DNA of 64,000 nucleotides from positions 1,024,001 to 1,088,000 of the forward strand of contig CAWCRS010000003.1 of NCBI GenBank assembly GCA_963798085.1. The letters run 5' to 3'. A program made the translations under genes and the position numbers. The stretch is from an uncultured Gemmatimonadales bacterium (GTDB taxonomy: Bacteria > Gemmatimonadota > Gemmatimonadetes > Longimicrobiales > RSA9). Under the pieces are notes generated by a model. It worked only from the letters and a program-made list of their open reading frames with translations, was not told the DNA's origin and searched no databases. Numbering within the stretch: position 1 is the stretch's first letter; each line of letters begins with the position of its first letter. Below, one piece after another: positions 173 through 30,378 of the stretch.

Positions 173-317
173 ACGGACCGTCTTGGCATTCTTGGGTTCC
201 GGCCGCAACACACACAGGGCCGGCTCCCAACGCCTATCGAGTGACCGATTTCCATGCGAAATCCGGTCCCGTCTCTGTCGGCAGCGGCCGGAAGGAAAGA
301 ACGCCAGGCTGGTCCGA
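173..317. repeat. 144-bp dyad element, copy C1 (145 bp; core on minus strand)
   Basis: Left end aCGGACCGTCTTGGCATTCTT-GGG-TTCCGGCCGC; right end GCGGCCGGAA-GGA-AAGAACGCCAGGCTGGTCCGA; core at 233-258, reverse complement CGCATGGAAATCGGTCACTCGATAGG. Confidence 0.9.
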
Positions 318-401
318 CGCGACATATCGGTCAAATCCTGAGGTCGGAGTGCGGACCCGTCACTGGCCGGGCGTCTGACGCTTGTCCGGTTGATACAGCA
401 C

Positions 402-431
402 TTGACAATACAAAGTACTTGTCGCTATCCT
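402..431 (+). promoter_or_regulatory. Putative sigma70 promoter with overlapping inverted-repeat operator
   Basis: TTGACA(402-407)-18 bp-TATCCT(426-431); imperfect palindrome GACAATAC-AAA-GTACTTGTC; AT-rich island just upstream of RBS AGGAG(441-445) and ATG 455. Confidence 0.55.
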
Positions 432-454
432 GCGCCATGCAGGAGCCTGCGAAC

Positions 455-1636
455 ATGAATGACTGCGATGTGATCGTCGTTGGAGCCGGCCTGGCGGGCC
501 TGGTCGCGGCCAGAGACCTCGCCGCTCGCGGACACCGCGTGCGCCTGGTCGACGTCAAGCTTGATCCGGGCAGGAACGTGCACACCACGGGCATTTTCGT
601 ACGCCGCACGCTCGAGGATTTCGCGCTGCCGGCCGAATGCCTGGGTCCTCCGGTGCGACGTGTGGTGCTGCACTCGCCTGCAGGTCGCGAACTCGAGCTG
701 CTCAGCTCGCAGGACGAGTTCCGTGTCGGTCGCATGGGGGCATTGTATCAGCGACTGCTCGCGGAGGGTGAGGCCGCGGGGGTGGAGGTCTCGCTGGGCA
801 CGCGCTTCCACTCCGCGGCGCAGGACGCGCGCGGATCGGCGGTCTGGCTGGAGCGCGGCCACCGTCGCTGGCGGGTGCGCACCCGGTTCCTCATCGGGGC
901 CGATGGTGCGGTGTCCCGCGTCGCCCGACAAATGAACCTCGATCAGAATCACGAGTGGCTGGTGGGTGTCGAGGACGTGTATGAGGGTTCGCTGTACGAA
1001 GGCCCGCCCACCCTGCACTGCTGGCTCGACCCCCGGCTCGCTCCCGGGTACATCGCCTGGGCGACGGACGATGGCGAGACATCGCACGTGGGTGTGGGCG
1101 GATATGCGGGTCGATTCGAGCCGCTGGCGGCGCTGGCGACGCTGCGCAGCCGGCTGCAGGGGCGCTCCCGCCTGCTGTCGCTGCAGCGGGTGGAGCGACG
1201 CGGCGGCCGGATTCCAGTGAACGGCGTGCTGCGGCGAATCGGTAGCCGGCGCGCATTGCTCATCGGAGATGCTGCCGGGGCGGTGTCGCCACTCACAGCA
1301 GGTGGCCTGGACCCCTGCCTGCGTCTGACAGGGGCAGCCGTGATGCTCGTCTCCTCTGTGCTCATGGGCGCGCCGGAGTCCCTGCTCGATGCATATTCGG
1401 GCGTTCCTTTCCAGCGTCATTTTTTCAGGCGACGCATGCTCCGCCGCGCGCTCGCCGCTACTACGCATCCGATCTGGGCAGAGGTCGCCTGCGCCGCCCT
1501 GTCGCTGTGGCCTTTGCGCGAGCTGGCCAGCGGGCTGTTCTTCGGCCGCGGCTCGTTCCCCGACATCGACGTCGCGTTGCCGATCGTGCAGCCGGTGCCT
1601 GCAACGTCGGCAGCGGAGTTGGCGCCGGCCGGCTAG
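455..1636 (+). CDS. FAD/NAD(P)-dependent oxidoreductase, geranylgeranyl reductase-like
   Basis: DVIVVGAGLAG Rossmann motif, IGADG, LIGDAAGxVSPLTAGG; RBS AGGAG. The ORF-track extension to 254 runs through the repeat element and is probably spurious. Confidence 0.85.
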   Translation: MNDCDVIVVGAGLAGLVAARDLAARGHRVRLVDVKLDPGRNVHTTGIFVRRTLEDFALPAECLGPPVRRVVLHSPAGRELELLSSQDEFRVGRMGALYQRLLAEGEAAGVEVSLGTRFHSAAQDARGSAVWLERGHRRWRVRTRFLIGADGAVSRVARQMNLDQNHEWLVGVEDVYEGSLYEGPPTLHCWLDPRLAPGYIAWATDDGETSHVGVGGYAGRFEPLAALATLRSRLQGRSRLLSLQRVERRGGRIPVNGVLRRIGSRRALLIGDAAGAVSPLTAGGLDPCLRLTGAAVMLVSSVLMGAPESLLDAYSGVPFQRHFFRRRMLRRALAATTHPIWAEVACAALSLWPLRELASGLFFGRGSFPDIDVALPIVQPVPATSAAELAPAG

Positions 1637-1653
1637 GCGGGGTCGTCGGACCA

Positions 1654-1883
1654 CCGGACCGTCTTTGCGTTCTTGGGTTTGGCGGATCTTCCCATGCGCG
1701 CGGACTGCCACGGTCGCGAGCTGCCATACGGCTGGCCCGCACCACCATGGAATCGGGCGCACAACGGTTTATTGTTCGCTGGCTTTCGTCCGGCGGGCAG
1801 CATTGTGCCCGCGCATCGGCAGTCCACCCGGGTCGAGAAGATAGTCGGAAGGAGCACAACCCAAGAACGCCAAGACGGTCCGA
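1654..1883. repeat. 230-bp variant of the dyad element with two GGG-type ends
   Basis: cCGGACCGTCTTTGCGTTCTT-GGG-TT at left; AA-CCC-AAGAACGCCAAGACGGTCCGA at right; no recognisable 26-bp core. Confidence 0.8.
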
Positions 1884-1942
1884 TCGCAAGATGCGCATGC
1901 CGCTGCCGATCCTCAGGGACAGCCCCCTCACCGAGGTGCGTC

Positions 1943-3145
1943 ATGCATACCCAGCCCAAACACGCTGTTCGTGCCTCCACGCTGCTCAGCGCCGTTGCCT
2001 GCGCATGCGTTGTCGCGAGCGTCGGATGTACAAAGCAGAAGGCAGCGGCGTCCGAGACTGATCGCGCCACCACATTGCCTGATCCGTCCGGCGCGTGGCG
2101 GCTGACGGCAACCCCGCTCGACATCGGCATTGCCGACGGCGACCCGCACTACCTGCTGCACAACGCCGTCAGTTCTCTGCTGCTGGATGACGGGCGCATC
2201 GTCGTGCTCAACGCGGGCTCACAGGAACTGCGGTTCTACGATACCGGCGGGAAGTTCCTCAACAGCGCCGGGCGCAAGGGGAGCGGCCCGGGAGAATTCC
2301 GCTGGCCCCAGCGCATCTACCTCGCGCATCCGGACACGATCCTGGTGTTCGACGCGGGTACGCAGCGCGAATCGCTGTTCGACACGCAGGGCCGTTTCGT
2401 GCGCGATCAGCCGTGGGTGCCGGCCGACAGCGAGCCCTTCCCGCGCGACGCGTGGCTCTATCGGCACACGCTCGTCGACGGGCCACCCTCACCTGACGCA
2501 CGCGAGTCCGTGCGCCGGCTTCTGAACGCGTTGCCGCCGCTGGAATCGCCGCGGCAGTTCCGGTTCGCGCGCGTGGACACACAGGATCGCGTGTGGGTGC
2601 GGGCGGCCCCGTGGGATCCGCAGCAGAGCACGGGCTGGAGCGTGTATGCGAAGTCGGGCGCGCCGCTCGCGCGTGTCACGACGCCACCGGGCTTCGAGCC
2701 CGAGCACATCGGCCGGGATTTCCTGCTCGGGCGCAGCTACGACTCGGTCAACGTCGAGCACGTCCGGCTGTACCGGCTGAGCGGCCTGCCGGCGAAGGAG
2801 CCGCCGGCCCCCGCGCTCATGGCACAGTCGAGCGCACCGGCGCATCCCGCAGCGGTGCCGGATGCGTTGCGCCGCAACATGCTGAGCGTGGTGCGCAACA
2901 CGATGGCGCAGCAGGAGATCTACTACTCGCTGCCTGAACACGGGTACAGTTACGCCGCGCGCGCGGACCAGCTCGAGTGGCCGGAGGACATGGACGGGCT
3001 GGTACCGAACATCATCGACGGTGGACCCACCGGGTGGACCATGGTGCTGTTTCACGAGCGCGAACCCATCGCCTGCGCCGTCACCGCCGGGATCGCCGGG
3101 CCGGTCGGCTGGCGGCCGGGCATTGCCACCTGCGTGGCCTGGTAA
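1943..3145 (+). CDS. 6-bladed beta-propeller lipoprotein with a C-terminal pilin-head-like domain
   Basis: RBS GAGGT; lipobox-like ASVGC; DGRIVVLNAGSQELRFYD...GRKGSGPGEF propeller signature; C-terminal LRRNMLSVVRNTMAQQEIYYS...GWTM...C...C. Confidence 0.75.
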   Translation: MHTQPKHAVRASTLLSAVACACVVASVGCTKQKAAASETDRATTLPDPSGAWRLTATPLDIGIADGDPHYLLHNAVSSLLLDDGRIVVLNAGSQELRFYDTGGKFLNSAGRKGSGPGEFRWPQRIYLAHPDTILVFDAGTQRESLFDTQGRFVRDQPWVPADSEPFPRDAWLYRHTLVDGPPSPDARESVRRLLNALPPLESPRQFRFARVDTQDRVWVRAAPWDPQQSTGWSVYAKSGAPLARVTTPPGFEPEHIGRDFLLGRSYDSVNVEHVRLYRLSGLPAKEPPAPALMAQSSAPAHPAAVPDALRRNMLSVVRNTMAQQEIYYSLPEHGYSYAARADQLEWPEDMDGLVPNIIDGGPTGWTMVLFHEREPIACAVTAGIAGPVGWRPGIATCVAW

Positions 3146-3837
3146 TCGGCTGTTAGAGCGCTGCCGGCTGCGGCGGCGGACGGAGCAGCCCACAACGCAG
3201 TGAAGGGCGCGCGAACGACTGAACTGTGCGCCGGGCCGGACCAGCCGCTGAGCGGCTGCAACGGTGATCCGCTGCTCAGCGGGTCGCTCGCGTGCCGACC
3301 ACCGCCACAAGCAGCCATAATTGGTGGCCGGCCAGAGAACCCGGAACGTGTGCGCCGGCCCGTTCCATCGAACGCGGCCGGGTCGCACCCAGGGGCGGCC
3401 CTGGGGCCAGCCTTCCTTCAACGCTACGCGAGCACGTTCCAACCGAGCAGCGCATTCTGACCCGACTACCGGGTGCACTCCGCCGCAGCTGCAGGCCGTC
3501 GGCATCGCACATCGTCCCAACAGTGCTGTTAACCCTCTGCCGGCGCGTCTGGTCGGAATGCGGCTGCGGCCGCCGTGCGCCACGCTGGAACGCCCGGCAC
3601 ACTGCGGTGTCGTGCCCACGTTGACCATCTCGCCGGAAGCCGTGCGCTACCGTTGTCCAATCACAGTCCACCGCACGCGACGCCGACGGGCGCTGGCTGG
3701 CGACGTGCGGTCTGCGAGGCGCGGGTGGCATGCAGCGGCGTCGTCGCATACACTCCAGACATGGAGCTTGTCTTTGACCGCGGGCCTGCTCCATGGTTGG
3801 CCACTGCAGCGGATCTGACCTGCATTCGACATCGTGG

Positions 3838-5851
3838 ATGGTCCGGATGCTTCTTCTCCTCGTGCGGATTTCCGTATCGCAGCTGCCGGCGCAGACAGTG
3901 GATCCGGGTGCGTTCGAGCGCGAGCTGGCGGCCGTCACGGATCCGGCGGCGCTGTCACGCGTGGCGCAGGAGCGTGTGGCGACGACATCGTCCGCCAGTG
4001 CCGGCGCGCCTATCGCGCTCGGCCTCGTCCATCTGCGCTGGTGGGAACTCACGCGGAACCGCAAGGAAGCGGACCGGGCGAAGGACGAGTTCAGCAAGGC
4101 GAGAGCGATCGAAGCCGACAATGCGTGGGCGGTCTTCGGCTACGGGCTCAGCCTGGCGCACGGGCCGGATGTGCGCTCGGACGGGCCGGCGCTGGCGGCG
4201 ACAGGTCGTTCGTGGGCGAGGGAGCTGGGTCTGGATGCGCGCTCGCGGGCGCGGCGCGCGATGGAGCAGGCGCTGGCGCTGGACGCAGGCTTCAATCGCG
4301 CGGCTGAAGTGCTGGGGAGCTGGCGCTGCAGTCGCGCCGCGCGGACGAGCTCGCGAGAGCGAAGGACGCGTTGCTGGTAGTCCTCGCGCAGCAGCGTGCC
4401 ACGGACGGCACACTGCGCGTACTGTCGCGTGTGGCCAGTTCCCTGGACGATCAGGAGACGGCGCTGCGCGTTGCCCAACTGGCTGTTAGAAGGCATCCCG
4501 GTGCCGCCAACCTGCACGCATTGAGTGTGGCCCTGCTGCGTACGCCCGGGCGCGAGCAATCCCGTGCGGACGGGTACTTCCAGGTGCTGGATGCGCTGAC
4601 ACCCGGTGTGGCGGCGCAGCTGTGGTCGGAGATCGGGCCCATTGCCAATGCGGAAGAACAGAAACGCTGGCAGGCGGGCGATCTCGCTGCGCGAGGCGCG
4701 CTGCTGCGGAAATTCTGGGACCTGCGCGCCGGCCTCGCCGCGGAAGCGGTAGCGGAGCGGCTGGCATAGCATTATCGCCGGCTCGAGGTCGTGCTGCAGA
4801 AGAACGTTCGGGTCGCGGATGGGCTGGCAGCCGGGCATTGGCACGCTCAAGGAGAAGATGCCGGAAGCACCCTTCGACGAGCGCGGTGGTGTGTACCTGC
4901 ACAACGGGCCGCCGGACCGCATCATTCGCACGCTGGACATGAAGTTCGCCACGGAGGCGTGCAGCACAGGCATGGGTCCAGCCGTCTACAACGAGTCGTG
5001 GCTGTATCATTGCCTGGAAGAGCGGCCTCGCCTGATCAACTTCGTGCGCTGCAACGGCCTGCTCGGCTACGTCGTGCCGTACACCACGCCGTGCGGTGCG
5101 TCGGGGGACGCACGCTATCAGACGGATCGTCAATTCATTGACGATGCGCTCTGCAGCTGGCGCACACCGGAGCGCACACTCGAGTTCGCGCGCGAGCACA
5201 TGGCGGTGGACACCGATGCTCCTGATTTTTCCGCCGCGACTCCGTTCGCGTGGGACATGTTCGCGTTCCGCGGCAGCACCGGGCAGAGGGATCTCTCGGT
5301 GCCCGTGGGCGTGGCCGGCGATTCCCTGCACGAAGACGTGCTGGCCGACGGGCGGCGAGGCCATCGCCTGCGGCTCTCGCTCTTCGTGGTCGATACCGCG
5401 GCGCAGCGCGTCTCGCACGCGGACACGGTGGAATCGTTCGTCGGCAGGAGCGCGCGGCGAGCTGGTGATCGCGTACGTGAACCTGTCCGTACCGCCGATG
5501 GCTGATGCTGTGCAGCGCATTGTGGTACGGGAGGCCGGTCGGCCGGAACGCGGCGCACTGCACGGTGAGCACGTGCGGGTGCCCGATTATGGCGGCGACT
5601 CGCTGATGGTGAGCAGCATTGTGCTCGCCCTGCCAGGCGACGGCGGCAACTGGAAGCGTGGTGCAACGACGCTCACCGTGGTGCCCGCAGGCGAATTCGG
5701 CGGTGGTCAGTTCCGCGTCTTCCATGAGGTCTGCAATCTTCCGAAGGACTCGCGGTATGAGACCGAAATCGAGATCCAGCGAATGGATGGCGCCCGTGAG
5801 TCGCTGCGCTTCGTTTCCAGGGCGTGGCGCAGCCCGAGGGCCGCGGCGTAA
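3838..5851 (+). pseudogene. GWxTD-domain-like secreted protein, broken into several frames
   Basis: Signal peptide, TPR-like helices, FWDLR...ERLA*HYRRL, FDERGGVYLHNGPPD, NESWLY; in-frame TAG at 4767-4769 and frame changes near ~4320, ~4810 and ~5455. Confidence 0.7.
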
Positions 5852-6063
5852 TCCACGAACTGCGCTCGATCGATACCGGCCTCGAATCCGGCCGGTATCG
5901 ACTGCACGTCCGTGTCCGCAATCTCCAGACGAATGCGGTCGCTGCCAGCGAACGGCGGAACGCCGTGACGGCGGCATCCCGCTGACGGGTCCAACCGGGC
6001 AACGGCTTGAGCCGGAGCCCGCGAGGCGCCAGTATGTCGCACCCTTCACGACGGATGGTCGAC

Positions 6064-7392
6064 ATGCGCAATCCCGCAGCCGGTGCGCCCGCGTTCGCTC
6101 TTGCCCTGGCCACGTTGCTCGCCAGCGTGGCAGGTGCGCAGAACTTCCGCCAGACCCAAACAGATGATTACACGCGCTACGAGCTGCTCGCCCCGTCGTC
6201 GCACAGTTTTCACATCGTCTACGATGTGAGCGCCACCACCGGGGGCGCGCCCTTCTACTTCAACGCGATTCGCGCGGGCGCCGAAGAGACCGTGCACGGC
6301 GTGTACGACCTCATGACCGGGCAGCCGCTGAAGTGGCAGGTGGTCGATGGCGATGAAGCGAAGCGCGCGGGCATGCAGAACGCGAGCCCCAATCAGCGTT
6401 ATATCCAGGTGACGCTGGCGCGGCCGGTGCCGGAGGGCGGACAGGGTCGCGTGCGCATCGACAAGACCTACCGGGACACCGCGAGCTATTTCGCGCAGGG
6501 TGATGCCATCGTCTTCGACCGCTCGCTGGGCATCGACCGCAATGCGGTGGTGCTGCCCGCCGGATACGAGCTGGTTTCGGTCAATTATCCATCGCAGGTG
6601 CAGGCGGAGGCGGACGGGCGCATCCGCGTGAGCTTCATGAATCGCGGTCCGGCCGCAGTGCCCTACCGCGTGCAGGCGAAGCCGCTGCCTCGCGGCGCCG
6701 CGGCCATGGCGGGGCCGGGCGATGCGGCCGGTCGCGGCCGCGGCGCCGCCGGCTCAGGCGGGCGAAGCGCGCAGAGCGGACGCGGCGGGGCAGCGGTGGC
6801 TGCGCCGGCACCGGAGGGAGCACGCGTCGACTACCGCTTCGATGAGCGCGCCTTCGAGGACCGTGACATCACCTACTTCCTGGACCAGCCCGGGACGCAT
6901 TCGTTCGACCTGTTCCACGACTACACGGAGAGCCGGCCCGGGATGGACCACTACGTGAACGTCGTGCGTGCCGGCAGCCGCTCAGCGAATCCCAGTGCGA
7001 TCATCCTGGATACAGGCGAGAAACTGCGGGTCGAGACGCTGCGCGGCAGCGAGATCACCGCGAAGCAGCTGGACATTGGCGAGACCGTGACGGCGACCAC
7101 GGAGGCGGTCGTGATCTGGTACCCGCCGGTGCCGAAGGGCGGCTCCACGCGGCTGCGCATCAGTGAGCGCTACACGGATGCGGGCCGCTACCTGGTGTCG
7201 GGCGGCGAACTGCTGTGGGATCGCAGTTTCGGCCGCGCGCGCAACACGGTGATCCTGCCGGCCGGCTGGTTCCTGACAGCCAGTTCGATTCCTGCCGTCA
7301 TCAGCACGCTCGACGATGGCCGCATCCGGCTGCGCTTCATCAACGACCGCCCGGACGAGATCGCCGTGTACCTGCGCGCCCGGCACAGGTAG
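6064..7392 (+). CDS. Secreted protein of unknown function with two homologous domains
   Basis: Signal peptide ending AGA-Q; internal repeat (HSF...PVPxGG..RxRI...DRS.G..RN.V.LPAG...DGRIR..F.N twice) joined by a Gly/Ala-rich linker; start uncertain (6034/6055/6064). Confidence 0.75.
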   Translation: MRNPAAGAPAFALALATLLASVAGAQNFRQTQTDDYTRYELLAPSSHSFHIVYDVSATTGGAPFYFNAIRAGAEETVHGVYDLMTGQPLKWQVVDGDEAKRAGMQNASPNQRYIQVTLARPVPEGGQGRVRIDKTYRDTASYFAQGDAIVFDRSLGIDRNAVVLPAGYELVSVNYPSQVQAEADGRIRVSFMNRGPAAVPYRVQAKPLPRGAAAMAGPGDAAGRGRGAAGSGGRSAQSGRGGAAVAAPAPEGARVDYRFDERAFEDRDITYFLDQPGTHSFDLFHDYTESRPGMDHYVNVVRAGSRSANPSAIILDTGEKLRVETLRGSEITAKQLDIGETVTATTEAVVIWYPPVPKGGSTRLRISERYTDAGRYLVSGGELLWDRSFGRARNTVILPAGWFLTASSIPAVISTLDDGRIRLRFINDRPDEIAVYLRARHR

Positions 7393-7500
7393 TACCTGCT
7401 CCGGCCTCGCATAACTGGCTGTTAGAACAGAATCCGGCGTCCCCCGCCGGGTGGGGACGGCCTCAGCAGGAAGGGAGAGGCGCCGCCGCGCGACCCGGCG

Positions 7501-8322
7501 TCAGTCGCGGGCGAAGCGGTAGAGCAGGCAGCGCATGATGCGCAGCGCCGGGATGACGTTCATGGCGCGCACGGCCAGGCGAACCTTGCGGGGCATGCGG
7601 GCAAAGGCGGCGTGGCGCGTGGCGCGCACGTCGGCGACCCGCTCGAGGCGAGGCTCGAGGCGGGTGATGTCGCGGGCATCACCCAGGCCCCACTGGAAGG
7701 TGGCGCCCGTGCCGCGAACATTGAAGTTCGATCGCTGCAGCCAGCGCACGAGCTGTCGCGGGTGCACGTCGAATGCGATCCAGCCTTCGGGGAAGTGCCC
7801 GGTCAGTGCATGGAGCAGAGCCTTCAGCACCCCCTCTGTCAGGTACATCGTCACGCCTTCCGCGACGATCATGGCGGGCCGGTCGCGGGGGATGGCGTCG
7901 AGCCAGTCCAGGTCGGCAAGCGACGTCCCGATCGTGTGGTAGTCCGGGCGCTGCGGATAGAGACGCCGGCGCAGCTCGATCACGTCCGGGTAGTCCACGT
8001 CGAACCAGCGCACGCCCGGTGGCGCGGCGACACGAAACGCGCGGCTGTCCATGCCGCAGCCCAGGTGCAGCACGGTCGCGCCAGGATGCTCCGCAAGGTA
8101 CTCCCGTGTCCAGAGATCGAGCTGTGCGCCCCGGCTGGCGAACAGGAAGGCGGCGCGCGGCCCGACCTTCAGCTTCGCGAAGTCGTAGTCAATGCGCCGG
8201 ATTGCGTCTTCCGCCCATTTGTCGGGCAGAATCGCGTCGGGCGAGCGACTCTGCAGTGCCCGCCCGTACAGCGTGATGAGCATCGTCTCCTTCTCGCGGG
8301 AGAAGCTGACCTTTTCACTCAT
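7501..8322 (-). CDS. Class I SAM-dependent methyltransferase (leucine carboxyl methyltransferase/Omt-like)
   Basis: ETMLITLYGRA, VLHLGCGMDSR, WFDVDYPDVIELR, IVAEGVTMYL motifs. Confidence 0.9.
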   Translation of the reverse strand: MSEKVSFSREKETMLITLYGRALQSRSPDAILPDKWAEDAIRRIDYDFAKLKVGPRAAFLFASRGAQLDLWTREYLAEHPGATVLHLGCGMDSRAFRVAAPPGVRWFDVDYPDVIELRRRLYPQRPDYHTIGTSLADLDWLDAIPRDRPAMIVAEGVTMYLTEGVLKALLHALTGHFPEGWIAFDVHPRQLVRWLQRSNFNVRGTGATFQWGLGDARDITRLEPRLERVADVRATRHAAFARMPRKVRLAVRAMNVIPALRIMRCLLYRFARD

Positions 8323-8325
8323 CTG

Positions 8326-8469
8326 TCGGACCGGGTTCGAACTCTTTCCTTCCGGCCGCACCTGCCATGATCATGCGCCTGGCGCGCATGGCAACGCACG
8401 ATCTGCGGTCTGCCCGAGCCAGCGCCATGCGTGTACGTAGCGCAACGCAAGAATGCCAAGACGGTCCGA
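8326..8469. repeat. 144-bp dyad element, copy C2 (left end degenerate)
   Basis: TCGGACCGggTTcGaacTCTT-TCC-TTCCGGCCGC ... AA-CGC-AAGAATGCCAAGACGGTCCGA; CGCATG at offset 59 (8385). Confidence 0.8.
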
Positions 8470-8474
8470 TTGGC

Positions 8475-9002
8475 TCAGGCGCGCTGGTACTCGAAGACGA
8501 TGACTTCGCCGACTTCCGCGACCTCGGAATTGCCCACCGCTTTCATGCCGATCTTCTGCGCGACGCGGATGGATGGCGTGTTCCAGGGCGGCACGGTGGC
8601 GCGCACGGCGGTGACGCCGGGGCGGGCGATGGCCCACTCGGCAACGGCGGCGGCGGCTTCGGTCGCGTAACCCTGCCGCTCGAAACTCGGAAACACGGCC
8701 CATCCCATGAGGACGTGGCCGTTGCGGTCGGGCACCAGGCCAATGCCGGCGGACCCAACCGCCTCACCCAGCGTGCGGTCCACGGACAGCCACGCGCACC
8801 ATGTTGCCTTCTCCGGATCACCGTGCAGCATCTGGAGCAGCTCTTCCAGATGGTCTTCGAGCAGAGGCGGGACGATTCCGCCGCTGAAACGGGCGGCCAC
8901 CACGTCGAACAAGCGATCGTGGTCGCCCGCCAGCATGGCCTCGACCAGCGGCGCGGAGAACGGAACCAGCTCGAGACGCGCCGACTGCAGCGGGTCGGGC
9001 AC
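8475..9002 (-). CDS. GNAT family N-acetyltransferase (RimJ/RimL-like)
   Basis: MGWAVFPSFERQGYATEAA; NTPSIRVAQKIGM. Confidence 0.9.
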   Translation of the reverse strand: MPDPLQSARLELVPFSAPLVEAMLAGDHDRLFDVVAARFSGGIVPPLLEDHLEELLQMLHGDPEKATWCAWLSVDRTLGEAVGSAGIGLVPDRNGHVLMGWAVFPSFERQGYATEAAAAVAEWAIARPGVTAVRATVPPWNTPSIRVAQKIGMKAVGNSEVAEVGEVIVFEYQRA

Positions 9003-9014
9003 GCGCGCCCCGGG

Positions 9015-12305: not shown

Positions 12306-12388
12306 GACGCACCTCCCGAGCGGTGGACCCCCGCGCCAAGATACGCGGCCACGCCCGGTCCGGCGACACTATCGGGACGTGCTGACGG

Positions 12389-16890: not shown

Positions 16891-17007
16891 GAGGACGCGA
16901 GAGAGTGAGGACGCGAGAGTGAGGACGCGAGAGTGAGGACGCGAGAGTGAGGACGCAAGGAAGCGCGCGGACCAGGGCCCAAAGGCGGGCGAGAGTGAGG
17001 ACGCGAG
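16891..17007 (+). repeat. 14-bp tandem repeat GAGGACGCGAGAGT (~4.5 copies plus one dispersed copy) in a G-rich tract
   Basis: Units at 16891, 16907, 16921, 16935, partial at 16949; another copy at ~16989-17007. Confidence 0.9.
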
Positions 17008-17196
17008 GGAGGGTTGGACCAGGGGGTGGCAGTGGAGGGCGCGGAGGAGTCGGAGAACGACTGTTCTCACACGGTGGACACAGGGTCAACGGAGGGGCGT
17101 GTTTCCTTGGAGGGTGAGGGGGAATGAGGTGAGCGGGAATGAGGTGGGGGTCTGGAGGGAGGTCTGTGGTTTCGAGTGTCGGGGCGGATGCCGATA

Positions 17197-20264: not shown

Positions 20265-20273
20265 TGCTATAAT
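20265..20273 (+). promoter_or_regulatory. Consensus extended -10 element TGCTATAAT
   Basis: Perfect TGnTATAAT in a GC-rich intergenic region ~265 bp upstream of CDS 20540. Confidence 0.45.
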
Positions 20274-20539: not shown

Positions 20540-21358
20540 ATGCGCATGGTTCAACGTCTCTTTCTGGCCCTGCTGTTGCTCGCAATCCCCGGCGGTTCCC
20601 TGCTGGCGCAGGGCATGCCGATCAAGCAGCCGAACCGGCTCATGATCTTCGTCGAGAGCCTGAAGCCGGGGACCGACACGGACCACGCGGTGAACGAGTC
20701 CGGCTGGCCGGCCGCGTACGCCAGAGCCAACTCGCCCTACTATTACCTGGCGCTTTCCTCCATGACCGGGCCCAGCGAGGTCTGGTTCGTGTCACCGTAC
20801 GATTCCTACGCCGCCGAGGCGAAGCAAATGAAGACGGAGGGCGACGATGCCGCGTTGAACGCCGAGTTCGACCGGCTGGCGCGAGCCGACGCGCAGTACC
20901 TCAGTGACACACAGTCGTTCGAGGCCATCGCGCGGCCGGACCTGAGCTACGGTCAATTCCCGGATCTCGGACTGGCGCGCTTCTTCGGCGTCACCCTGCT
21001 CCGCATCCGGATGGGCCATGGGGATGCATTCGAGGCCGCCGCCAAGGTCTACATGACCAACTTCAAGAGAGCGAATCCCAGCGGCAGCTACCGCATGTAC
21101 CAGGTCATCAACGGCATGCCGGGAGTGAATTATCTGGTGTTCTCGACCGTCAATGACTACGCAGCGCTGGACGCGGCCATGGCGGCCGATAACGCCATGT
21201 TCCAGGGCATGAACCCGAAGGACATGGCCATGCTCCAGAAGTCGATGACCGACGACTTCCAGAATATCATCTCGAATCGCTACCGGCTGAGCCCGAGCAT
21301 GTCCTACGTCTCCGCGGAGACGAAGGCGAAGGATCCGGCCTTCTGGAACAAACACTGA
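20540..21358 (+). CDS. Secreted hypothetical protein, probably two NIPSNAP-like alpha/beta barrel repeats
   Basis: RBS GGAGG; signal peptide ending LLA-Q; two repeats of the type LKPG..H / IRMGH..FE. Confidence 0.7.
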   Translation: MRMVQRLFLALLLLAIPGGSLLAQGMPIKQPNRLMIFVESLKPGTDTDHAVNESGWPAAYARANSPYYYLALSSMTGPSEVWFVSPYDSYAAEAKQMKTEGDDAALNAEFDRLARADAQYLSDTQSFEAIARPDLSYGQFPDLGLARFFGVTLLRIRMGHGDAFEAAAKVYMTNFKRANPSGSYRMYQVINGMPGVNYLVFSTVNDYAALDAAMAADNAMFQGMNPKDMAMLQKSMTDDFQNIISNRYRLSPSMSYVSAETKAKDPAFWNKH

Positions 21359-21371
21359 GTCAGTTCTTCGT

Positions 21372-21402
21372 CCGGGGGCCCTTCCACGCGGAGGGCTCCC
21401 GG
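21372..21402 (+). terminator. GC-rich stem-loop after CDS 20540-21358
   Basis: CCGGGGGCCCTTCC-ACGC-GGAGGGCTCCCGG; no clear U-tract. Confidence 0.45.
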
Positions 21403-21919
21403 CGGTGGGTGCAAGTCTCTGACTTCCGCGAGCCCAGGGGTCAATGTGTCCGTGCGCAACAAATGTTGGCGAGCGCGCGAGACCTCACGACGGCGGAGCG
21501 ACTGCGGCCGGGCTGCGCGGAAGCCTGAAGGCGTATCGAGCAGACGTAGTCCGCTGCAGCCAAGATGCGCAGGTGGAGGCAGTGCCAGCCCGGCCTCGAC
21601 AGCGTCAGCGCACGCCCGGATGATCGCCCTGGCCAGGCCTGTGGCCGGGTGCTTCTGGCAAGATCCGGTCTGGCTGGCACATTACCTGCTGCTGCGTGTA
21701 GCACAGTTCGCGGCGTTCTGCTGGTTCGATCCGATTTCGTCCCACAACCCCGCCACTATTGAACCGGAGCGACCGCGCGGCAGACCCCACCCGGGTTTCC
21801 TCTCGAGAACATCCGATCAGCGTGGCGACTCGCCGCCCGGTGACAGCGAAATGCGCTGTTACCATGGCACTCGCGCAGGAATGACCTGCGCGTCGCCACA
21901 CCCATGAACAAAGGGAACA

Positions 21920-23170
<1,251 letters not shown>

Positions 23171-23194
23171 GCCACTAACGCGGCGTCAGGCGGG

Positions 23195-24595
23195 TCAGGG
23201 CGTGCCGCCGCCGTTCCCGCCACCGCGGCCGGCGCGTCCCCCGCGATCGCCGCCGCGGCCGACGGGGGGCTGCGGCCCGCCGTGGAAGAACTGGCCGGGC
23301 GTCATGATGCCGTTCTGCTTGAACACCATGCCGTCCTTCATGACGAATTGCACGTTGCGCAGCGCGTCGATGTCAGCGAGCGGATTGCCCTGCACTGCGA
23401 TGAGGTCGGCGAGCAGCCCGGCCCGGATGGGGCCGCGCGTGTTCTCGGTCTGCGCCACGCGGTAGCCGTTCACGGTCATGGCGCGCAGGATATCCACGTT
23501 CGGAATCTTCGCATCCTTCCATGTCGTCAGGAACTCGATCGCCACCTCGCCCCGGGTCCTGCCGGGCACGAAGTAGTCGGCATCCGTGGAGAATGCCAGC
23601 AACACCTTGTTATCGTATGCGTTCTTCAGCAGTTCGACCGTACGCTGGTAGCGCTGCGGACTGGTGTGGCCGGTGAGCGTGATGGGGGTCTCCGTGCCAC
23701 AGCGCCAGATGCCTTTCTGCGCCATCAGCTTGTGGATCTCGTCGGTCATGCCGTTGTCGTGGGCAATGGACCAGATGCCGGCCTCGACCGCGCGCCGGGC
23801 GCCAGCGACGGTCTGCACGTGGCCCTCCACCTTGAGTCCGGCCTTCGCCGCCTCCGCAATGACGAGCCTGATGTCGTCTACCGAGTAGCCCCATGGCTTG
23901 CAGTCGACGCAGATCTTGATGACACGCGCACCGAACAGCTCGTTCTGGCGCACCGCCTTCACGATCTCGTCAGGCGTGTCCGCGTCGAGGTATTCGGGAT
24001 ACACGATGTCGTGCTGCTTCGCCATCTCCGGCGTGGGCGAGAACTGGCCGCCCATGCCGCCGATGATGATGCCGGAGTTGATGATCGTGGGCCCGGGGAT
24101 CCAGCCCTGCTCGATGGCCTGGCGCAGCGCCGTGTCGGCATAGTTGCCGTTGTTGCCCATGTCACGCACGATGGTGAAGCCGGCGGCCAGCATCTGCATG
24201 CCGTTCGATGCCGCCTGGATGGCGCGCAGCGGCGTCGAGTCCAGCACGTACGTCAGGTAGTAGTTGTTGTTCTCGGGCACTTCCTTGTAGGTAAGCGCGA
24301 GATGGTTGTGTGCATCGACGAGCCCGGGCAGCACCGTGAGCTGCGAGAGGTCGATCACCTGCGCGCCCGCGGGAATCGGGACATTGGGTCCGATGGCCGT
24401 GAAGCGCGCGTTCTCGACCACGATCACCTGGTTGCTGAGCACGGTGCCCGCCTCCGGGTCGATCAGGCGACCCGCGCGAATCACGATCGGGGCGGGCGAG
24501 GCCTGAGGCACCGCCTGCGCCGCGAGATGCGACGTCGAAGCGAACAGCAGGACTGCGAGACTGCGCAGCCGTCGACACCACGATGCGAGTTTCAT
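23195..24595 (-). CDS. Secreted amidohydrolase family protein
   Basis: Signal peptide; VLPGLVDAHNH, GFTIVRDMGN, ADLIAVQGNPLADI, VQFVMKDG. Confidence 0.92.
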   Translation of the reverse strand: MKLASWCRRLRSLAVLLFASTSHLAAQAVPQASPAPIVIRAGRLIDPEAGTVLSNQVIVVENARFTAIGPNVPIPAGAQVIDLSQLTVLPGLVDAHNHLALTYKEVPENNNYYLTYVLDSTPLRAIQAASNGMQMLAAGFTIVRDMGNNGNYADTALRQAIEQGWIPGPTIINSGIIIGGMGGQFSPTPEMAKQHDIVYPEYLDADTPDEIVKAVRQNELFGARVIKICVDCKPWGYSVDDIRLVIAEAAKAGLKVEGHVQTVAGARRAVEAGIWSIAHDNGMTDEIHKLMAQKGIWRCGTETPITLTGHTSPQRYQRTVELLKNAYDNKVLLAFSTDADYFVPGRTRGEVAIEFLTTWKDAKIPNVDILRAMTVNGYRVAQTENTRGPIRAGLLADLIAVQGNPLADIDALRNVQFVMKDGMVFKQNGIMTPGQFFHGGPQPPVGRGGDRGGRAGRGGGNGGGTP

Positions 24596-24805
24596 GGGCG
24601 CGCCTCGGCGTGACCGTTGTCGTGAGCGGATCGCCTGTGCGGGTCAGGCGACGATGGGTGGTCCGGGTTGCCTGAGACTATCGAGCCAACGGCCCACCGC
24701 AAGATCGCTGCAGTGGAACGCAGGCGGGGCGCTCACAGCCAGCACCACCGCCGCGAACCGCACGTGGCTGTGTCGCCTGCAACAGGCTGTTCTCCGACGA
24801 GCCGG

Positions 24806-25999
24806 TCAGCGCCTCACGAGGGGGTACAGCGCGACGACCTCACGATCCACGTCATCCTGGGTCACGCCGAGGATGTAATCGGCTCCGATCTCGAGGATGC
24901 GGAGAGCGGGCGTGTGCACGCGGCCGAGCGGCTCTCCGGCCGCCGAGAGGACTTCCCAGATGAGGCGAGCCGCATCGGCAGGATCCTCGCGGCCGACCCA
25001 CACTCTGTTCAGCCGATCCACCTGCAGGGCGGCGAAAGCCGGATGCGTCGGGCGATTCGGCAACTCGGCATAGAATCGCTCCCACATCTGCGCGCGCTCA
25101 CCGCTTCCCATGCGACGCAGGTGGTCCTGTTTCCACGCGCGCAGCTCGGCATCGGTGGTGGCGGGTGCGGGAGCGCGCGAACGGATGATCGTCGTGCGCC
25201 GGCCGGTCGCGTCGAAGGTGGACACCTGCCACGTGTCGCTGGCGCCAATGACAATCGTGTTCGCAGCCGCGGAAGCGAAGACATTGCGCCCGAAGGGAAT
25301 TTCCGAGCGCAGCGCCGCGTCGCCGACGCGGCCGAAGTACTGCTCGCTGCCCGGGAACGCGGCGATGGAGTCGAGGCGGGCACCCCCACGATCGAACAGG
25401 AAGTAGGGCACCGTGTCGCGCCGCTCACCGCGCGTGAAGATGCGATTGAAGCCCGGGACCACGAGCAGGGTCCCGTTGTCCAGCGTACCGACCGGCTCGG
25501 GGTATCCGGCATCGGGACTGGGCGGCTGCATGACGGACGCCCCCGACAGCTGTCCGTCGCCATTGAAGCGCGAGAGGCGGCGCGTCATGACGTCGTAGAC
25601 GAGGCTGGTATCGCCGGGCAGAACCTGCAGCGAGAACATGCCGCGGAATTCACCCGGTCCGCTGCCCGAGCGGCCGGTCGTCAGCGCGAGTGTGCCATCC
25701 GGCCGGAAGAAGCGCAGCTCGCCGCTCGTGCCATTGCCCAGCACCACGCGCCCGTCGGAGAGCACGCCGCCGCCGCGCACGCCGAACAGGTCGTGCCCGG
25801 GCCGCGCGTCCTGCCCACCGATCGTGAGGCGAGGCGAAGCGCCCAGGGTCCAGTCGGGAAGCGGCAGTGTCGCGATGTTCTCGATCTCGACGATGCGCAC
25901 CCCGGCACTGTCGCGCGTGACCGGCCCTGCGGAGGGTCTGGCTGTTTCGCCGCACGCCGCGAGCGAGAGCACGACCACGAGCACACCGGGCATTCGCAT
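24806..25999 (-). CDS. 6-bladed beta-propeller lipoprotein (paralog of 1943-3145)
   Basis: Lipobox LAAC; TRDSAGVRIVE; DGRVVLGNGTSGELRFF...GRSGSGPGEF; LQVDRLNRVWV. Confidence 0.85.
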   Translation of the reverse strand: MRMPGVLVVVLSLAACGETARPSAGPVTRDSAGVRIVEIENIATLPLPDWTLGASPRLTIGGQDARPGHDLFGVRGGGVLSDGRVVLGNGTSGELRFFRPDGTLALTTGRSGSGPGEFRGMFSLQVLPGDTSLVYDVMTRRLSRFNGDGQLSGASVMQPPSPDAGYPEPVGTLDNGTLLVVPGFNRIFTRGERRDTVPYFLFDRGGARLDSIAAFPGSEQYFGRVGDAALRSEIPFGRNVFASAAANTIVIGASDTWQVSTFDATGRRTTIIRSRAPAPATTDAELRAWKQDHLRRMGSGERAQMWERFYAELPNRPTHPAFAALQVDRLNRVWVGREDPADAARLIWEVLSAAGEPLGRVHTPALRILEIGADYILGVTQDDVDREVVALYPLVRR

Positions 26000-26337
26000 G
26001 GTTCGCGTATCGATTGCGCGTTTCACACCGGCCGCCATTTCTCTCGCGCACGGCATGGTAGTCGAACGACGGCACCGAAGGGCGCGCGCTCGCGGACGCG
26101 TGTCATGATCTGCATCGCTGCGTGCCAGCCTCCAGATCAGGTGCATTCGCCGGAGATTACGTGAGCAACTGTGACCCGGGTTTCGCCGAGCCAACCGCGC
26201 CGACATTAGGACAACGCCCGCATCTCGCGCGTTGCTGTCACGAAGAAGGGCTTCGCGTTGATCAAGGCCCAGACTTCCCGTGAAACCCGATCCACTCCGT
26301 ATCCCGGCCCGGTCCCGAACACCCTGGACTGGTACGC

Positions 26338-26401
26338 TCGGACCGTGCTGGCAAGTGGTCGGACCGACCCGGGCAATGGGCTGACCGACGTGGGCAAGTG
26401 G
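26338..26401 (+). repeat. Three degenerate 21-22-bp tandem copies of the element end motif
   Basis: TCGGACCGTGCTGGCAAGTGG | TCGGACCGACCCGGGCAATGG | GCTGACCGACGTGGGCAAGTGG, directly abutting copy C4. Confidence 0.7.
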
Positions 26402-26544
26402 CCGGACCGTCTTGGCGTTCTTTCCTTTCGACCGCACAGGAAATCGGCATGACACATTGTCGCATGAAAAGCGTCAATTGATATCTGAGCGGGTCTACTG
26501 CATGGGTGGACCGGCCGGAACGCAAGAACGCCAACCCGGTCCGA
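26402..26544. repeat. 144-bp dyad element, copy C4 (143 bp; 1-nt deletion in core)
   Basis: cCGGACCGTCTTGGCGTTCTT-TCC-TT ... CGCATGAAAAGCG-TCAATTGATATC ... AA-CGC-AAGAACGCCAACCCGGTCCGA. Confidence 0.92.
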
Positions 26545-26674
26545 TACGATATGTCGATGCGTTCAGCATCGGACCGGGCTCTCATTCTGCGATGCGACTC
26601 GCCCAAGGACTTGTGGGCCGCGCCAGCTTCCGGGCCTGAGCTTCCGGACTGCACTGAATCTCCGGATCCTGCCT

Positions 26675-27099
26675 TGCCGGACTGCTCTGAACTTCCGGAC
26701 CTGAACAGCGGGACTGCTCTGAACCTCCGGACCGTGTTGGCATTCTTGCGTTACGGGTCGATCGGCCATGCCCTCGACCCATCATCGCATGCGAAATGGT
26801 CAATCGATACGTCAGCGGGCCGTGAGCATGGGCGGGTGCGCCGAAAGGAAAGAATGCCAAACTGGTCCGGAAGCGCATGCCGGGTCCAGTCCAAAGAGCC
26901 GAGCTGCCGGACTGCTCTGAACTTGCGGACCTGAACAGCGGGACTGCTCTGAACCTCCGGACCGTGTTGGCATTCTTGCGTTACGGGTCGATCGGCCATG
27001 CCCTCGACCCATCATCGCATGCGAAACGGTCAATCGATACGTCAGCGGGCCGTGAGCATGGGCGGGTGCGCCGAAAGGAAAGAATGCCAAGCTGGTCCG
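26675..27099 (+). repeat. 195-bp direct duplication (period 230 bp) containing copies C5 and C6
   Basis: 26675-26869 vs 26905-27099, 3 mismatches counted by eye, 35-bp unique spacer. Confidence 0.9.
26727..26870. repeat. 144-bp dyad element, copy C5
   Basis: cCGGACCGTGTTGGCATTCTT-GCG-TT ... CGCATGCGAAATGGTCAATCGATACG ... AA-GGA-AAGAATGCCAAACTGGTCCGG. Confidence 0.92.
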
Positions 27100-27100
27100 A
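26957..27100. repeat. 144-bp dyad element, copy C6
   Basis: Near-identical to C5; ends AA-GGA-AAGAATGCCAAGCTGGTCCGA. Confidence 0.92.
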
Positions 27101-27178
27101 CAGGGTCCAATGTGAAAGTGTCGTAAAGCCGGGACGGCGTCCGTTGCCGCTCGGGCTGCCCGGACATAGGGTCGGTGG

Positions 27179-29116
27179 ATGACTCCAGTGCGGATGGGTC
27201 CGGGCGACCGTGCCCGGCAGGGTCGGCTGATCGGTTTCGTGGCGCCGCTCGTGCTGGTGGTGGTCTTTGCGGCGGCGCTCGCGTTCCAGGCGCTGGATGC
27301 GACGCGCTCGCACCGCGAGGCGGTGGCGCATACGCTGCGCGACTACGCTGGCTTCGCGGCGTTCATCGTGACGAACGCGGCGCGCCAGGAGCTGGAGCGA
27401 CGGCTCACGTACGCGTTCAGTCCCATCTTCCGCTATCAGCCGGAGTCGGGCGAGCCGCTGCCACCGGCCTCGGCGCTGGGCCAGGAGCGCGTGGAAGCGC
27501 AGCGTTGTGCGACGGCGGGTGTGCCCGATCCGACCTACTATCGCCTGGATCTTTCGAACAATTCATTAACCACAGCCGGGCCGGCGCCTTCCGCCAGCAC
27601 GCTGCAATGGCTGGCGGACACGCTGCGGGTCGCAGCGCCCGCGTTCCACGGCGATTGGGCGTTCGCACACATCTTCGGCGATGCGCACGCGGCGGCGCTC
27701 ATCGCCTACCGCGTGCTGCACGACTCCGCCGGGCACGCGCTGGCGGTGTACGCCAAGACCAGCTGCTTCGCGCTGCCGCGGCAGTCGCTTTTCGCGGCGG
27801 CGCTGCAGGCGGGACCGGCACTGCCTCCGTTTCTAACGGGCGGGCTGGCTAACGATTCATTGCTATCCGTGCGCGTGACCGATCCGCACGGAGACTCCAT
27901 CTGGGCATCCTCCCCGCAATACCAGGGCGGGCCCTCGGGCGAGGCAGGTTCGGCGTGGCCGCAGTCGGGTGGGCTGCGGCTGGCTGTGACCATCCGGCCC
28001 GACATCGCCAAACAGCTGGTTATCGGCGGCATGCCGCCGTCGCGGCTGCCCATGGCGGTGCTGCTGCTGGCGCTCAGCATTCTGTTTGCAGGCTACGCGG
28101 TATTGCAGTTGCGCCGGGAGCAGGAGCTGCTGCGGCTGCGTGAGCAGTTCGTGTCCAACGTCTCGCACGAGTTGCGCACGCCGCTGCAGCAGATCCTCAT
28201 GTTCGCCGAGCTGCTGAACATGGACGCCCTGCCCTCCGATGCGGAGCGCAGGCACTCAATGCAGGTAGTGGAGAGGGAGACGCGTCGTCTCATCCAGCTG
28301 GTGGAGAATGTGCTCCAGTTTTCGCGCGCGACGCAGGGCGAGGACACACTGTCCGAGCAGGTGGTGGCGCTCGAGCCGCTGGCGAGGGAGACCCTGCAGG
28401 CGTTCGCGCCACTGGCCCGTGCGGGCAATGCGCGGCTCACACTGCGCATCGAGCGCGACCACTCCCGGCGAGACAACCGCACTAACGATTGCGTTAGAGA
28501 CATTCCGATGACAGTGACGCTGCGCGACAGCGACGCTGCGGGGCACGACGCAGCTCGATCCGCGACCGTGAACAAACAGCAGGTTGCCGCGGATCACGGC
28601 GCTGAACAGGCGGCAGCCGGAGGAGGCGCCGAGGCGGAATCGTCGCCTGCCAGATTCGTTGCCGGGCGTGAGGCCTCGAGCCCGCGAAGTGATCAGGCGG
28701 GATCCGCCGCGGACCAGGACACCGCGGCTCTGGTGGCAGCGGGCCCGTTCGCGATTGCCGATGCAGCGGCCTTGCGACGCGTGCTGCTAAATCTGCTGGA
28801 CAATGCGGTGAAGTACGGACCTGCGAATCAGACCGTAACGGTAACGCTGACAGCGAATGCCGAGCACGCGACACTGATTGTTGATGACGAAGGTCCGGGA
28901 ATCCCGGCGTCCGAGCGCGAGCGCGTGTGGCAGGCGTTCCAGCGGCTGGCGCGCGAGGAAGGCGCGGCCATTGCCGGCAGCGGCATGGGCCTGGCCATTG
29001 TGCACGACCTGGTGCAGCGCATGGGCGGCGCGGCGCGCATTGAGCAGGCACCCGCAGGCGGGGCGCGTTTCATTGTCGAGCTGCGAGCGGCAGCCGGCGG
29101 CGGTGCAACGCCATGA
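27179..29116 (+). CDS. Membrane sensor histidine kinase with a ~95-aa low-complexity insertion
   Basis: Two TM segments; FVSNVSHELRTPL (H-box), LLNLLDNAVKY (N-box), DDEGPGI, GSGMGLAIV. Confidence 0.93.
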   Translation: MTPVRMGPGDRARQGRLIGFVAPLVLVVVFAAALAFQALDATRSHREAVAHTLRDYAGFAAFIVTNAARQELERRLTYAFSPIFRYQPESGEPLPPASALGQERVEAQRCATAGVPDPTYYRLDLSNNSLTTAGPAPSASTLQWLADTLRVAAPAFHGDWAFAHIFGDAHAAALIAYRVLHDSAGHALAVYAKTSCFALPRQSLFAAALQAGPALPPFLTGGLANDSLLSVRVTDPHGDSIWASSPQYQGGPSGEAGSAWPQSGGLRLAVTIRPDIAKQLVIGGMPPSRLPMAVLLLALSILFAGYAVLQLRREQELLRLREQFVSNVSHELRTPLQQILMFAELLNMDALPSDAERRHSMQVVERETRRLIQLVENVLQFSRATQGEDTLSEQVVALEPLARETLQAFAPLARAGNARLTLRIERDHSRRDNRTNDCVRDIPMTVTLRDSDAAGHDAARSATVNKQQVAADHGAEQAAAGGGAEAESSPARFVAGREASSPRSDQAGSAADQDTAALVAAGPFAIADAAALRRVLLNLLDNAVKYGPANQTVTVTLTANAEHATLIVDDEGPGIPASERERVWQAFQRLAREEGAAIAGSGMGLAIVHDLVQRMGGAARIEQAPAGGARFIVELRAAAGGGATP

Positions 29117-29844
29117 GCGTGCGCATTCTGCTCATCGAAGACAACGCCGATCTCGCACTCGGGCTGCGTCGCAGCCTGGAGCTGGAGGGCTACGATGTGC
29201 ACGTGTCGCCCGAGGGCGGGGGCGCGCTCGAGCGGTTGCGGCGCGAGGCGTGGGACCTCGTCGTGCTCGATCTGATGCTGCCGGGAATCAGCGGGTTCCA
29301 GGTGTTGCGCGCCATGCGTGCCGAAGGCAACGAGACGCCGGTGCTGATCCTCAGTGCCCGTGGCGAAGAAGCCGACAAGGTACAAGGCTTCCGCCTGGGC
29401 GCGGACAACTACGCGGTCAAGCCTATCGGCGTGTTAGAGCTGCTGGCGCGCGTGGAAGCCATGCTGCGCCGCGCGCGCCTGGCAGAAGCGAGCCAGCCCG
29501 TGAGGCAGGTATTCCGCTTCGGCGATGTGCGCGTCGACACCGGCACGCGTTCCGTGCAGCGCGACGGTGCACTGCTCGAGCTGAGTCCCAAGGAGTTCGA
29601 CCTGCTGCTCTACCTGCTGCGCAGTGGTGGCGTGGTCGTGAGCCGCGGCGAGCTGCTGCGCGAGGTGTGGGGCTACAAGCGCGCCGTGCCCACGCGGACG
29701 GTCGACGCGCACATCGCGCTGCTGCGCGGCAAGCTGGAAGCCGACCCATCCCGCCCGAAGTACCTGCTGACCGCACGCAAGGCCGGCTACCGGCTGGACG
29801 TTTCCGCCGCCCAGACTGACAGCACGTTGCGGCTCCCGGGCTGA
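29113..29844 (+). CDS. OmpR/PhoB family response regulator
   Basis: ILLIEDN, LDLMLP, KPIG, KEFDLL, TRTVDAHIALLRGKLE; ATGA overlap with the kinase. Confidence 0.96.
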   Translation: MSVRILLIEDNADLALGLRRSLELEGYDVHVSPEGGGALERLRREAWDLVVLDLMLPGISGFQVLRAMRAEGNETPVLILSARGEEADKVQGFRLGADNYAVKPIGVLELLARVEAMLRRARLAEASQPVRQVFRFGDVRVDTGTRSVQRDGALLELSPKEFDLLLYLLRSGGVVVSRGELLREVWGYKRAVPTRTVDAHIALLRGKLEADPSRPKYLLTARKAGYRLDVSAAQTDSTLRLPG

Positions 29845-29909
29845 CAGGTTACACCGGACCGGGACGTTCGCTGCACCCGGTTCGTGTGGTGTGGTTTGGC
29901 CAGCTTTCG

Positions 29910-30053
29910 TCGGACCGTCCTGGCATTCTTGGGTTCCGGCCGCAACGGCAATGGTCGCGACCCAGACACGCATGAATTGTGGTCAATCGATACGTGCCTG
30001 ATGTGCCGGCATTGGTGCCTGGGACGAAACGAAAGAATGCCAAGACGGTCCGA
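29910..30053. repeat. 144-bp dyad element, copy C7
   Basis: TCGGACCGTCCTGGCATTCTT-GGG-TTCCGGCCGC ... CGCATGAATTGTGGTCAATCGATACG ... AA-CGA-AAGAATGCCAAGACGGTCCGA. Confidence 0.92.
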
Positions 30054-30234
30054 AAGCGATCCCCCCAACCCCGGGCGCAGCGCCGTCGCCGAGCCCGCGC
30101 CTCGGGCAAGGCACAGGTGGCAGGCCCGTGCCCAAGCCCGGCGGGGTGCCCGGCGCCTACCCCGGTCCGGCGCGGTCGCCGAGCCCGTGCCGCGCCATTC
30201 GACATCGCCAGGCCAGCCGCACTTCATCAGCGGA

Positions 30235-30378
30235 TCGGACCGTCCTGGCATTCTTGGGTTCCGGCCGCTACCGCCATGGCGGTGACCCGCGCAGGTATGA
30301 AAAGTGGTCAATCAATGCCTGGCTGCGCCGTCGGCATATGCGCGCGTGACGGAAGGAAAGAATGCCAAGACGGTCCGA
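30235..30378. repeat. 144-bp dyad element, copy C8 (overlaps the 3' end of the cytochrome-TPR gene)
   Basis: TCGGACCGTCCTGGCATTCTT-GGG-TTCCGGCCGC ... GGTATGAAAAGTGGTCAATCAATGCC ... AA-GGA-AAGAATGCCAAGACGGTCCGA. Confidence 0.92.

Follow-up and report, generated by a model that had tools for sequence, protein, structure and literature searches.

Gene-less inverted repeats with distinct left and right ends, probable miniatures of a TIRtron, in a Gemmatimonadota genome

Repeat copies in the window and a full element elsewhere

The window is a stretch of 64,000 nucleotides from an uncultured Gemmatimonadales bacterium (GCA_963798085.1, contig CAWCRS010000003.1, positions 1,024,001 to 1,088,000). 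With a repeat finder and direct listing we located nine left and nine right ends of an inverted repeat in it, all of which fit a 25-bp motif. Positions within an end are counted from the terminal CGG, and a variable triplet occupies positions 21-23 of the motif: type A ends carry G[G/C]G and type B ends TC[C/G]. The layout of a copy is called majority or flipped according to the orientation of its interior relative to its ends. The elements are as follows.

C1, 174..316, plus strand: 143 bp, A (GGG) to B (TCC), majority layout
Ninth element, 1655..1882, plus strand: long-class miniature of 228 bp with the same ends, A+A (GGG/GGG)
C2, 8327..8468, minus strand: 142 bp, A (GCG) to B (TCC), majority layout, decayed B end
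C3, 17198..17339, minus strand: 142 bp, A (GCG) to B (TCC), majority layout
C4, 26403..26543, minus strand: 141 bp, A (GCG) to B (TCC), majority layout
C5, 26728..26869, plus strand: 142 bp, A (GCG) to B (TCC), flipped interior
C6, 26958..27099, plus strand: 99% duplicate of C5 with 32 nt of left flank in common, a tandem duplication
C7, 29911..30052, plus strand: 142 bp, A (GGG) to B (TCG), flipped interior
Copy C8, 30236..30377, plus strand: 142 bp, A (GGG) to B (TCC), flipped interior, 79% identity to C7

The eight copies of the original prediction are real and measure 141-143 bp from the terminal CGG (the 143-145 bp given earlier include one extra base per side). As proposed there, each of them combines one G[G/C]G end with one TC[C/G] end at positions 21-23, and the core of C1-C4 is oriented oppositely to that of C5-C8 relative to the ends; C2 and C3 are confidently oriented once arm features are added. 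The two arms of C1 have 10 identical bases in common just inside the triplets. An Rfam scan of the window gave no match. Separately, the A ends of C1 (174-209) and C7 (29911-29946) have 97% identity over 36 nt, and are exactly alike from position 21 to 36, despite the opposite layouts of their interiors, hinting at end exchange between dispersed copies. About 180 nt to the left of C3 lies a 14-nt tandem repeat (window 16898-17015) whose plus strand is purine-rich.

The same ends also enclose a gene:

Full element, G000:C8:104627-105680 (L001 2128-3181), on contig C8: 1054 bp, same 25-bp ends, consensus CGGACCGTCTTGGCRTTCTT-NNN-TT

Its terminal bases are 20/20 identical, and its triplets are GGC (left) and GGG (right). 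The only ORF starts 76 nt inside the left end and continues across the right terminal repeat, with its stop codon about 40 nt outside that repeat. The product matches Pfam Y1_Tnp (E 5.4e-8) and contains the motifs NHFH (58-61) and YVHLNP (from 118), with H59, H61, Y118 and N122 invariant in 15 sequences. The top fold match of its predicted model is 4ER8, the E. coli REP-associated tyrosine transposase (E 7.2e-6). This model includes a confident helical domain at 230-300 that is C-terminal and weakly HTH-like; HTH_23 is found in 8 of 15 family members at E <= 0.05 and falls below the curated cut-off for the protein of this genome. No other Y1 gene was found in the genome, and the suspected link to an HUH enzyme is borne out, the ends enclosing a Y1/HUH transposase gene. 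The full element has no TCC end and, like the long class (74/80 ends), has G at position 15, where A prevails in the short class (47/74); the direct parent of the 142-bp class may therefore have been another element.

End pairing and interior orientation across the genome

A position-weight scan of the 6.23-Mb genome, in which the triplet columns were ignored (threshold at least 14 bits), yields 223 ends. These form 94 inverted pairs and leave 35 ends unpaired, two of which belong to the full element. Pair lengths fall into 47 copies of 141-143 bp, 5 of other lengths between 125 and 144 bp, and 42 of 165-309 bp; the 177- and 193-bp copies are short units with a duplicated end and were left out of the long class (n=40). 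According to a crude gene model all copies are intergenic and, on an informal look, are seen in every flanking-gene arrangement. Orientation counts against local GC skew are 10/9/7/7, in an assembly whose skew is too flat to define replichores. On the 1.1-Mb contig C3 there are 30 of the 52 short copies and on the 0.89-Mb contig C5 none, a concentration that suggests local hopping.

Among the 47 copies of 141-143 bp, 40 are A+B, 3 are A+GCC, 3 are B+B and 1 is A+A. After near-duplicates were taken out, heterotypic copies number 31 of 37 where 18.7 would be expected (permutation p = 2e-4), or 33 of 37 if GCC is counted as B (p = 5e-5); kinship among copies means that both p values overstate the significance. 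The other short copies (125-144 bp) are A+A in 4 of 5 cases, and A+A also prevails among longer copies and in the full element: the 40 long copies comprise 17 GGG/GGG, 11 GGC/GGG, 9 with a TCC end and 3 others, and 19 of them have identical triplets at both ends. Heterotypy is thus real and exceeds chance, though the strictness claimed for it is lost: it is a property of the 141-143-bp subfamily, which itself includes A+A and B+B copies, and a long A+A element overlooked at first (1655-1882) lies within the span first described.

Each triplet type is nonetheless well kept. In copies with the majority layout (n=26) the A ends have G21 in 25/26 and G23 in 25/26, and the B ends T21 in 24/26, C22 in 25/26 and C23 in 24/26, whereas free interior positions have majority frequencies of 0.3-0.6 and interiors average about 57% identity. 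Drift alone would have randomised the triplets as well, so each type would be either under constraint or being homogenised. This conservation fits a functional left/right difference, and an end-polarity role for the triplet is possible. End mismatches average 1.8 per copy, and the four homotypic copies exceed this with 2, 2, 4 and 6 (one-sided p=0.043).

We oriented 38 non-redundant copies on positions 29-70 of each half only, with the core calls as a start. Confident orientations were obtained for 35: 25 majority, 6 flipped, 3 B+B and 1 A+A. Three further copies are weakly oriented (2 flipped, 1 majority; totals then 26:8), and the two flipped ones may be further independent flips. Core polarity had been described as independent of end type; genome-wide, at 25:6, it is linked to end type with a minority exception, and at 4:4 the flipped form is over-represented in the window, where a single 3.7-kb stretch contains 3 of the 6 non-redundant flipped copies. 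A classifier on arm positions 24-56, trained on 11 majority copies (leave-one-out 11/11 correct), shows that in 5 of 5 flipped copies the arm features go with the core and not with the triplet; it follows that the whole interior is reversed between the triplets, in roughly a fifth of the copies. Judged from diagnostic columns, the switch point lies between position 24 and about 31, in agreement with the suggestion of an inverted interior with exchange beside the triplet.

The flipped copies are more alike than random sets (62.5% identity against 57.1%, p=0.003, a value that ignores kinship and to which closeness to the consensus may contribute), and a single clade of flipped copies is not rejected (p-AU 0.31). 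Both results favour two old, fixed subfamilies over switching, the outcome that the original prediction had set against itself, but they fall short of proof: in the best interior tree the flipped copies are scattered and require 5 changes, on no supported (starred) branches, and interior phylogenies are unresolved at 48 and at 22 rows. The A-type triplets of flipped copies vary (GCA, GCT, GCG, GGG). One soil DNA run covered 0.12 of the words, as low-depth contigs; none of the 15 joints listed out of 20 has a strand change, a result that carries no weight on inversion since such contigs drop rare variants. Flipped interiors are most likely an old rearrangement and not an active switch, and the number of flips would be one to a few.

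It might instead be argued that nothing was inverted and that triplets were converted separately, from majority through B+B to swapped, either stepwise or by end exchange between dispersed copies. B+B copies do exist, the five nearest neighbours of the copy at contig C9:28010 are all flipped, and both the heterogeneous A triplets and the similarity of the C1 and C7 A ends at 21-36 agree with such a history. On the other hand, it needs two multi-base changes in opposite directions, its intermediates (4) are fewer than its end products (6), and the trees decide neither for nor against a group of flipped with B+B copies (p-AU 0.36). We regard separate conversion as unlikely.

Arm pairing, unit boundaries and related elements

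A different view, close to the original prediction, takes the triplet mismatch as a polarity mark on an intermediate with paired ends (cruciform or single-strand), read by the HUH enzyme, which would itself exchange strands just inside the triplet, so that flips recur and A+B is kept. Consistent with this, there are 6 flipped copies against 1.8 expected if ends changed independently (table 25/1/3/6, Fisher p=3e-4, ignoring kinship), their ends are intact, they have also duplicated, and several changes are needed in the best tree. The bubble calculated earlier is also correct: in a paired A+B element the mismatched bases would be mainly purines on one strand and mainly pyrimidines on the other. 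Single-strand folding of C7 does bring its ends into pairing (z -4.3 and -5.9), as it would those of any inverted repeat. Interior folding scores are mixed (7/37 below -2).

However, there is no covariation between the arms within elements, either at positions 1-20 or at 24-60 (arm identity within an element at 24-60 is 0.480 against 0.490 shuffled). The arms of one copy are no more complementary than those of different copies, and hence no long hairpin is kept by compensatory changes; the proposed attC-like hairpin under selection is not upheld. Nor is a bubble required, given GGG/GGG in 17/40 long copies and identical triplets in 7/22 full elements (that of this genome counted among the 22) and in 9/9 paired miniatures of the relative G008. 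Further points against the polarity mark are the identical triplets in 19/40 long copies, the similarity among flipped copies and the gradual decay of the left/right match in the 22 full elements described below. Taken together, these make a polarity mark on a paired intermediate unlikely.

Tandem arrays of the end motif, with periods of 29-68 nt, extend outward from some copies (G000:C12:92517-92766, C3:86968-87169, C9:94597-94663 and others). In the outer units of several arrays the match stops at or near positions 19-26, as exchange at the triplet would have it, whereas in others it stops at 28-40.

Unit boundaries are clearer. Four adjacent pairs at 96-99% identity have at most 3 nt of flank in common, and this identifies the terminal CGG as the point where a unit ends. 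C5/C6 and other neighbouring pairs do have flank in common and are ordinary tandem duplications. None of the 94 pairs has a target duplication of 3-10 nt, and 2-nt duplications are at background (6/94 against 6.7 expected; 10 against 6.1 with the ends one base wider). AT boxes are evenly spaced at 41-42 and 62-63 from each end, and together with the near-constant length this would point to sequence read-out on a spaced scaffold.

Transposase homologues were found in 12 of 36 genomes of the same family and in 0 of 24 from other families of the order. Of the 30 matches, five are fragments or second pieces, and we examined the remaining 25. In 22 of the 25 loci (that of this genome included), paired ends with at least 14/20 matching bases lie 74-80 nt upstream of the start codon. 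Nearly all ends open with CGGAC or a close variant, and their sequence is particular to each element. A sub-terminal box at 37-45 is present in 21/22 left and 13/22 right ends, and a GCCC box at 46-56 in 22/22 left ends; these boxes match conserved boxes in the arms of the miniatures. Left/right identity in the 22 full elements fades gradually from about position 13 without a dip at 21-22, and the triplets are the same at both ends in 7 of them. The genome G016, flagged as unpublished, contributes four of the 25 loci (3 of the 22 paired), and conclusions are unchanged without them.

Own paired miniatures occur in 3 of 5 relatives searched with one end pattern. In 18 stretches from three relatives, triplets differ in 3/3 pairs of G035 and in 4/4 readable pairs of G005 (one misregistered), and are identical in 9/9 pairs of G008 (one further stretch is unpaired). 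A bubble at 21-23 common to the whole family was considered and is rejected by the identical triplets in related full elements and miniatures. The end motif of this genome was not found in 60 relatives, a 300-genome phylum sample or a metagenome collection, and a single-protein scan of genome contigs gave one weak partial match.

Read by eye, the left ends of related full elements contain the GCCC box, a TATCCT-like hexamer and, 5-7 nt later, the start codon. By comparison with the promoter consensus, they resemble a leaderless promoter that overlaps the sub-terminal boxes, an arrangement through which the element could repress itself.

Relation to known systems and a proposed mechanism

Classical DDE MITEs are short and non-coding, with imperfect TIRs that match a full-length element and a target-site duplication. 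The repeats resemble them in the first three respects and in their slightly different left and right ends, and differ in the lack of a target-site duplication and in having an HUH tyrosine enzyme as partner. An attC-like site is a structure-selected hairpin with a fixed strand mark that belongs with an integron integrase and a cassette array; here arm covariation is absent and the strand mark is missing from 19/40 long copies.

REPINs and their RAYT enzymes (Bertels and Rainey 2011, PMC3116915), as far as the portions of that paper available to us describe them, are closer. Both are intergenic inverted doublets with a favoured length, conserved ends and spacers that have diverged; both form tandem clusters and have a single-copy Y1 enzyme as partner. 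Compensatory arm changes, common in REPINs according to the same portions, are absent here, and the ends, read by eye and with no Rfam match, have no GT[AG]G tag or short internal palindrome.

TIRtrons, or TIRYT (Di Nocera et al. 2013, PMC3733652), have been equated with subclass 2.1 of TnpA-Y1 (Quentin et al. 2018, PMC6006769), to which we assign the enzyme by motif match to Table 1 of the latter, not by tree or HMM placement. Compared with the accessible parts of these papers, the element is like a TIRtron in its Y1/HUH gene, whose product has the NHFH and YVHLNP motifs and is extended by helices at the C terminus, in TIRs at a fixed distance from the gene, in the overlap of the gene with one repeat, in low copy number and in a derived family of repeat dimers. 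The dispersal of repeats as dimers and clusters is likewise present here (94 inverted pairs, 35 unpaired ends). The ends open with CGGAC and not with the GGGGWSAS motif of some described TIRs (PMC3733652), in parts of a source that may already list a CGGAC type elsewhere. Sub-terminal boxes, fixed-length miniatures, heterotypic ends and interior inversions are seen here and not in the TIRtron descriptions in those parts of PMC3733652 and PMC6006769. In the literature searched, with most subscription papers outside it, the name TIRYT occurs in only two works, and we found no account of TIRtron miniatures whose ends are heterotypic or whose interiors are inverted, and no biochemical study of TIRYT enzymes. 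The repeats and their enzyme work like a REPIN/RAYT pair, lack the REP tag and the selected hairpin, and have the catalytic motifs, flanking terminal inverted repeats and dispersed dimers of a TIRtron. The class has already been described; the family found here is a further member, to which heterotypic ends and flips add detail.

Overall, the 142-base repeats are probably non-autonomous, gene-less miniatures of a TIRtron that have kept distinct left and right ends, with one or a few old interior inversions among them. The Y1/HUH enzyme of contig C8, or a close paralogue that has been lost or is missing from this 90% complete assembly, would copy CGG-bounded units without target duplication. 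What it would recognise is the sequence of an end of about 55 bp, made up of the terminal repeat and of sub-terminal boxes set apart at about 40-43 and 49-53, and not a long paired stem; it would probably do so through its putative C-terminal helix-turn-helix region. The triplet difference would be a left/right mark fixed in the founder of the subfamily, with copies that lose it spreading less well. Flips would have arisen from one or a few old inversions by exchange at positions 24-31, followed by local amplification.

Such exchange might proceed by polymerase template switching between imperfect repeats or as a side reaction of the transposase, and the rare A+A and B+B copies would be products of the same process. 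Template switching between imperfect inverted repeats gives arm homogenisation and spacer inversion, as the portions of PMC8604942 available to us report for quasipalindromes; homogenised arms and inverted spacers together would account for all three minority layouts, and the 10-bp arm identity of C1 shows that such identity can exist just inside the triplets. The examples in those portions come from coding sequences of yeast and have spacers of just 2-5 bp, against about 90 bp here, and because of this much shorter spacer the transposase side reaction remains a candidate.

HUH tyrosine transposases are a class known for single-strand hairpin substrates, and how such an enzyme acts on terminal inverted repeats is the question on which this genome bears. 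With a single enzyme and four layouts among 94 natural substrates whose free positions are saturated, the constrained bases and spacings become visible, and the four end/interior layouts are ready controls for a cleavage assay. That TIRYT enzymes read the three-base left/right mark and exchange strands inside it, one HUH enzyme both moving and inverting the miniatures, seems improbable to us; if it were so, the points at which these enzymes cleave and exchange could be read from the four layouts that occur in nature. The value of the system lies in detail on a described class and not in a new one.

A promoter-like pair (GCCATGG, 19 nt, TAGAAT) is found in 16/40 long copies (for example G000:C3:127333, C5:647691 and C9:279565), at position 89-101 from one end in 14 of the 16; shuffles average 0.6, for a motif that was defined post hoc. 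Together with the intergenic position of all copies (crude gene model), this motif might indicate that the pairs serve the host as invertible switches, such as phase-variable promoters, and are not mobile units. The motif faces a sense gene in 7/16 and an antisense gene in 9/16 cases, precise-ended duplicates exist, and the ends are absent from the 60 relatives and the 300-genome phylum sample, all of which make a host-serving switch very unlikely. In long copies, 25 of 41 ends that face a gene 3' end lie at most 20 nt from the stop codon, against 9 of 57 in short copies (again with the crude gene model).
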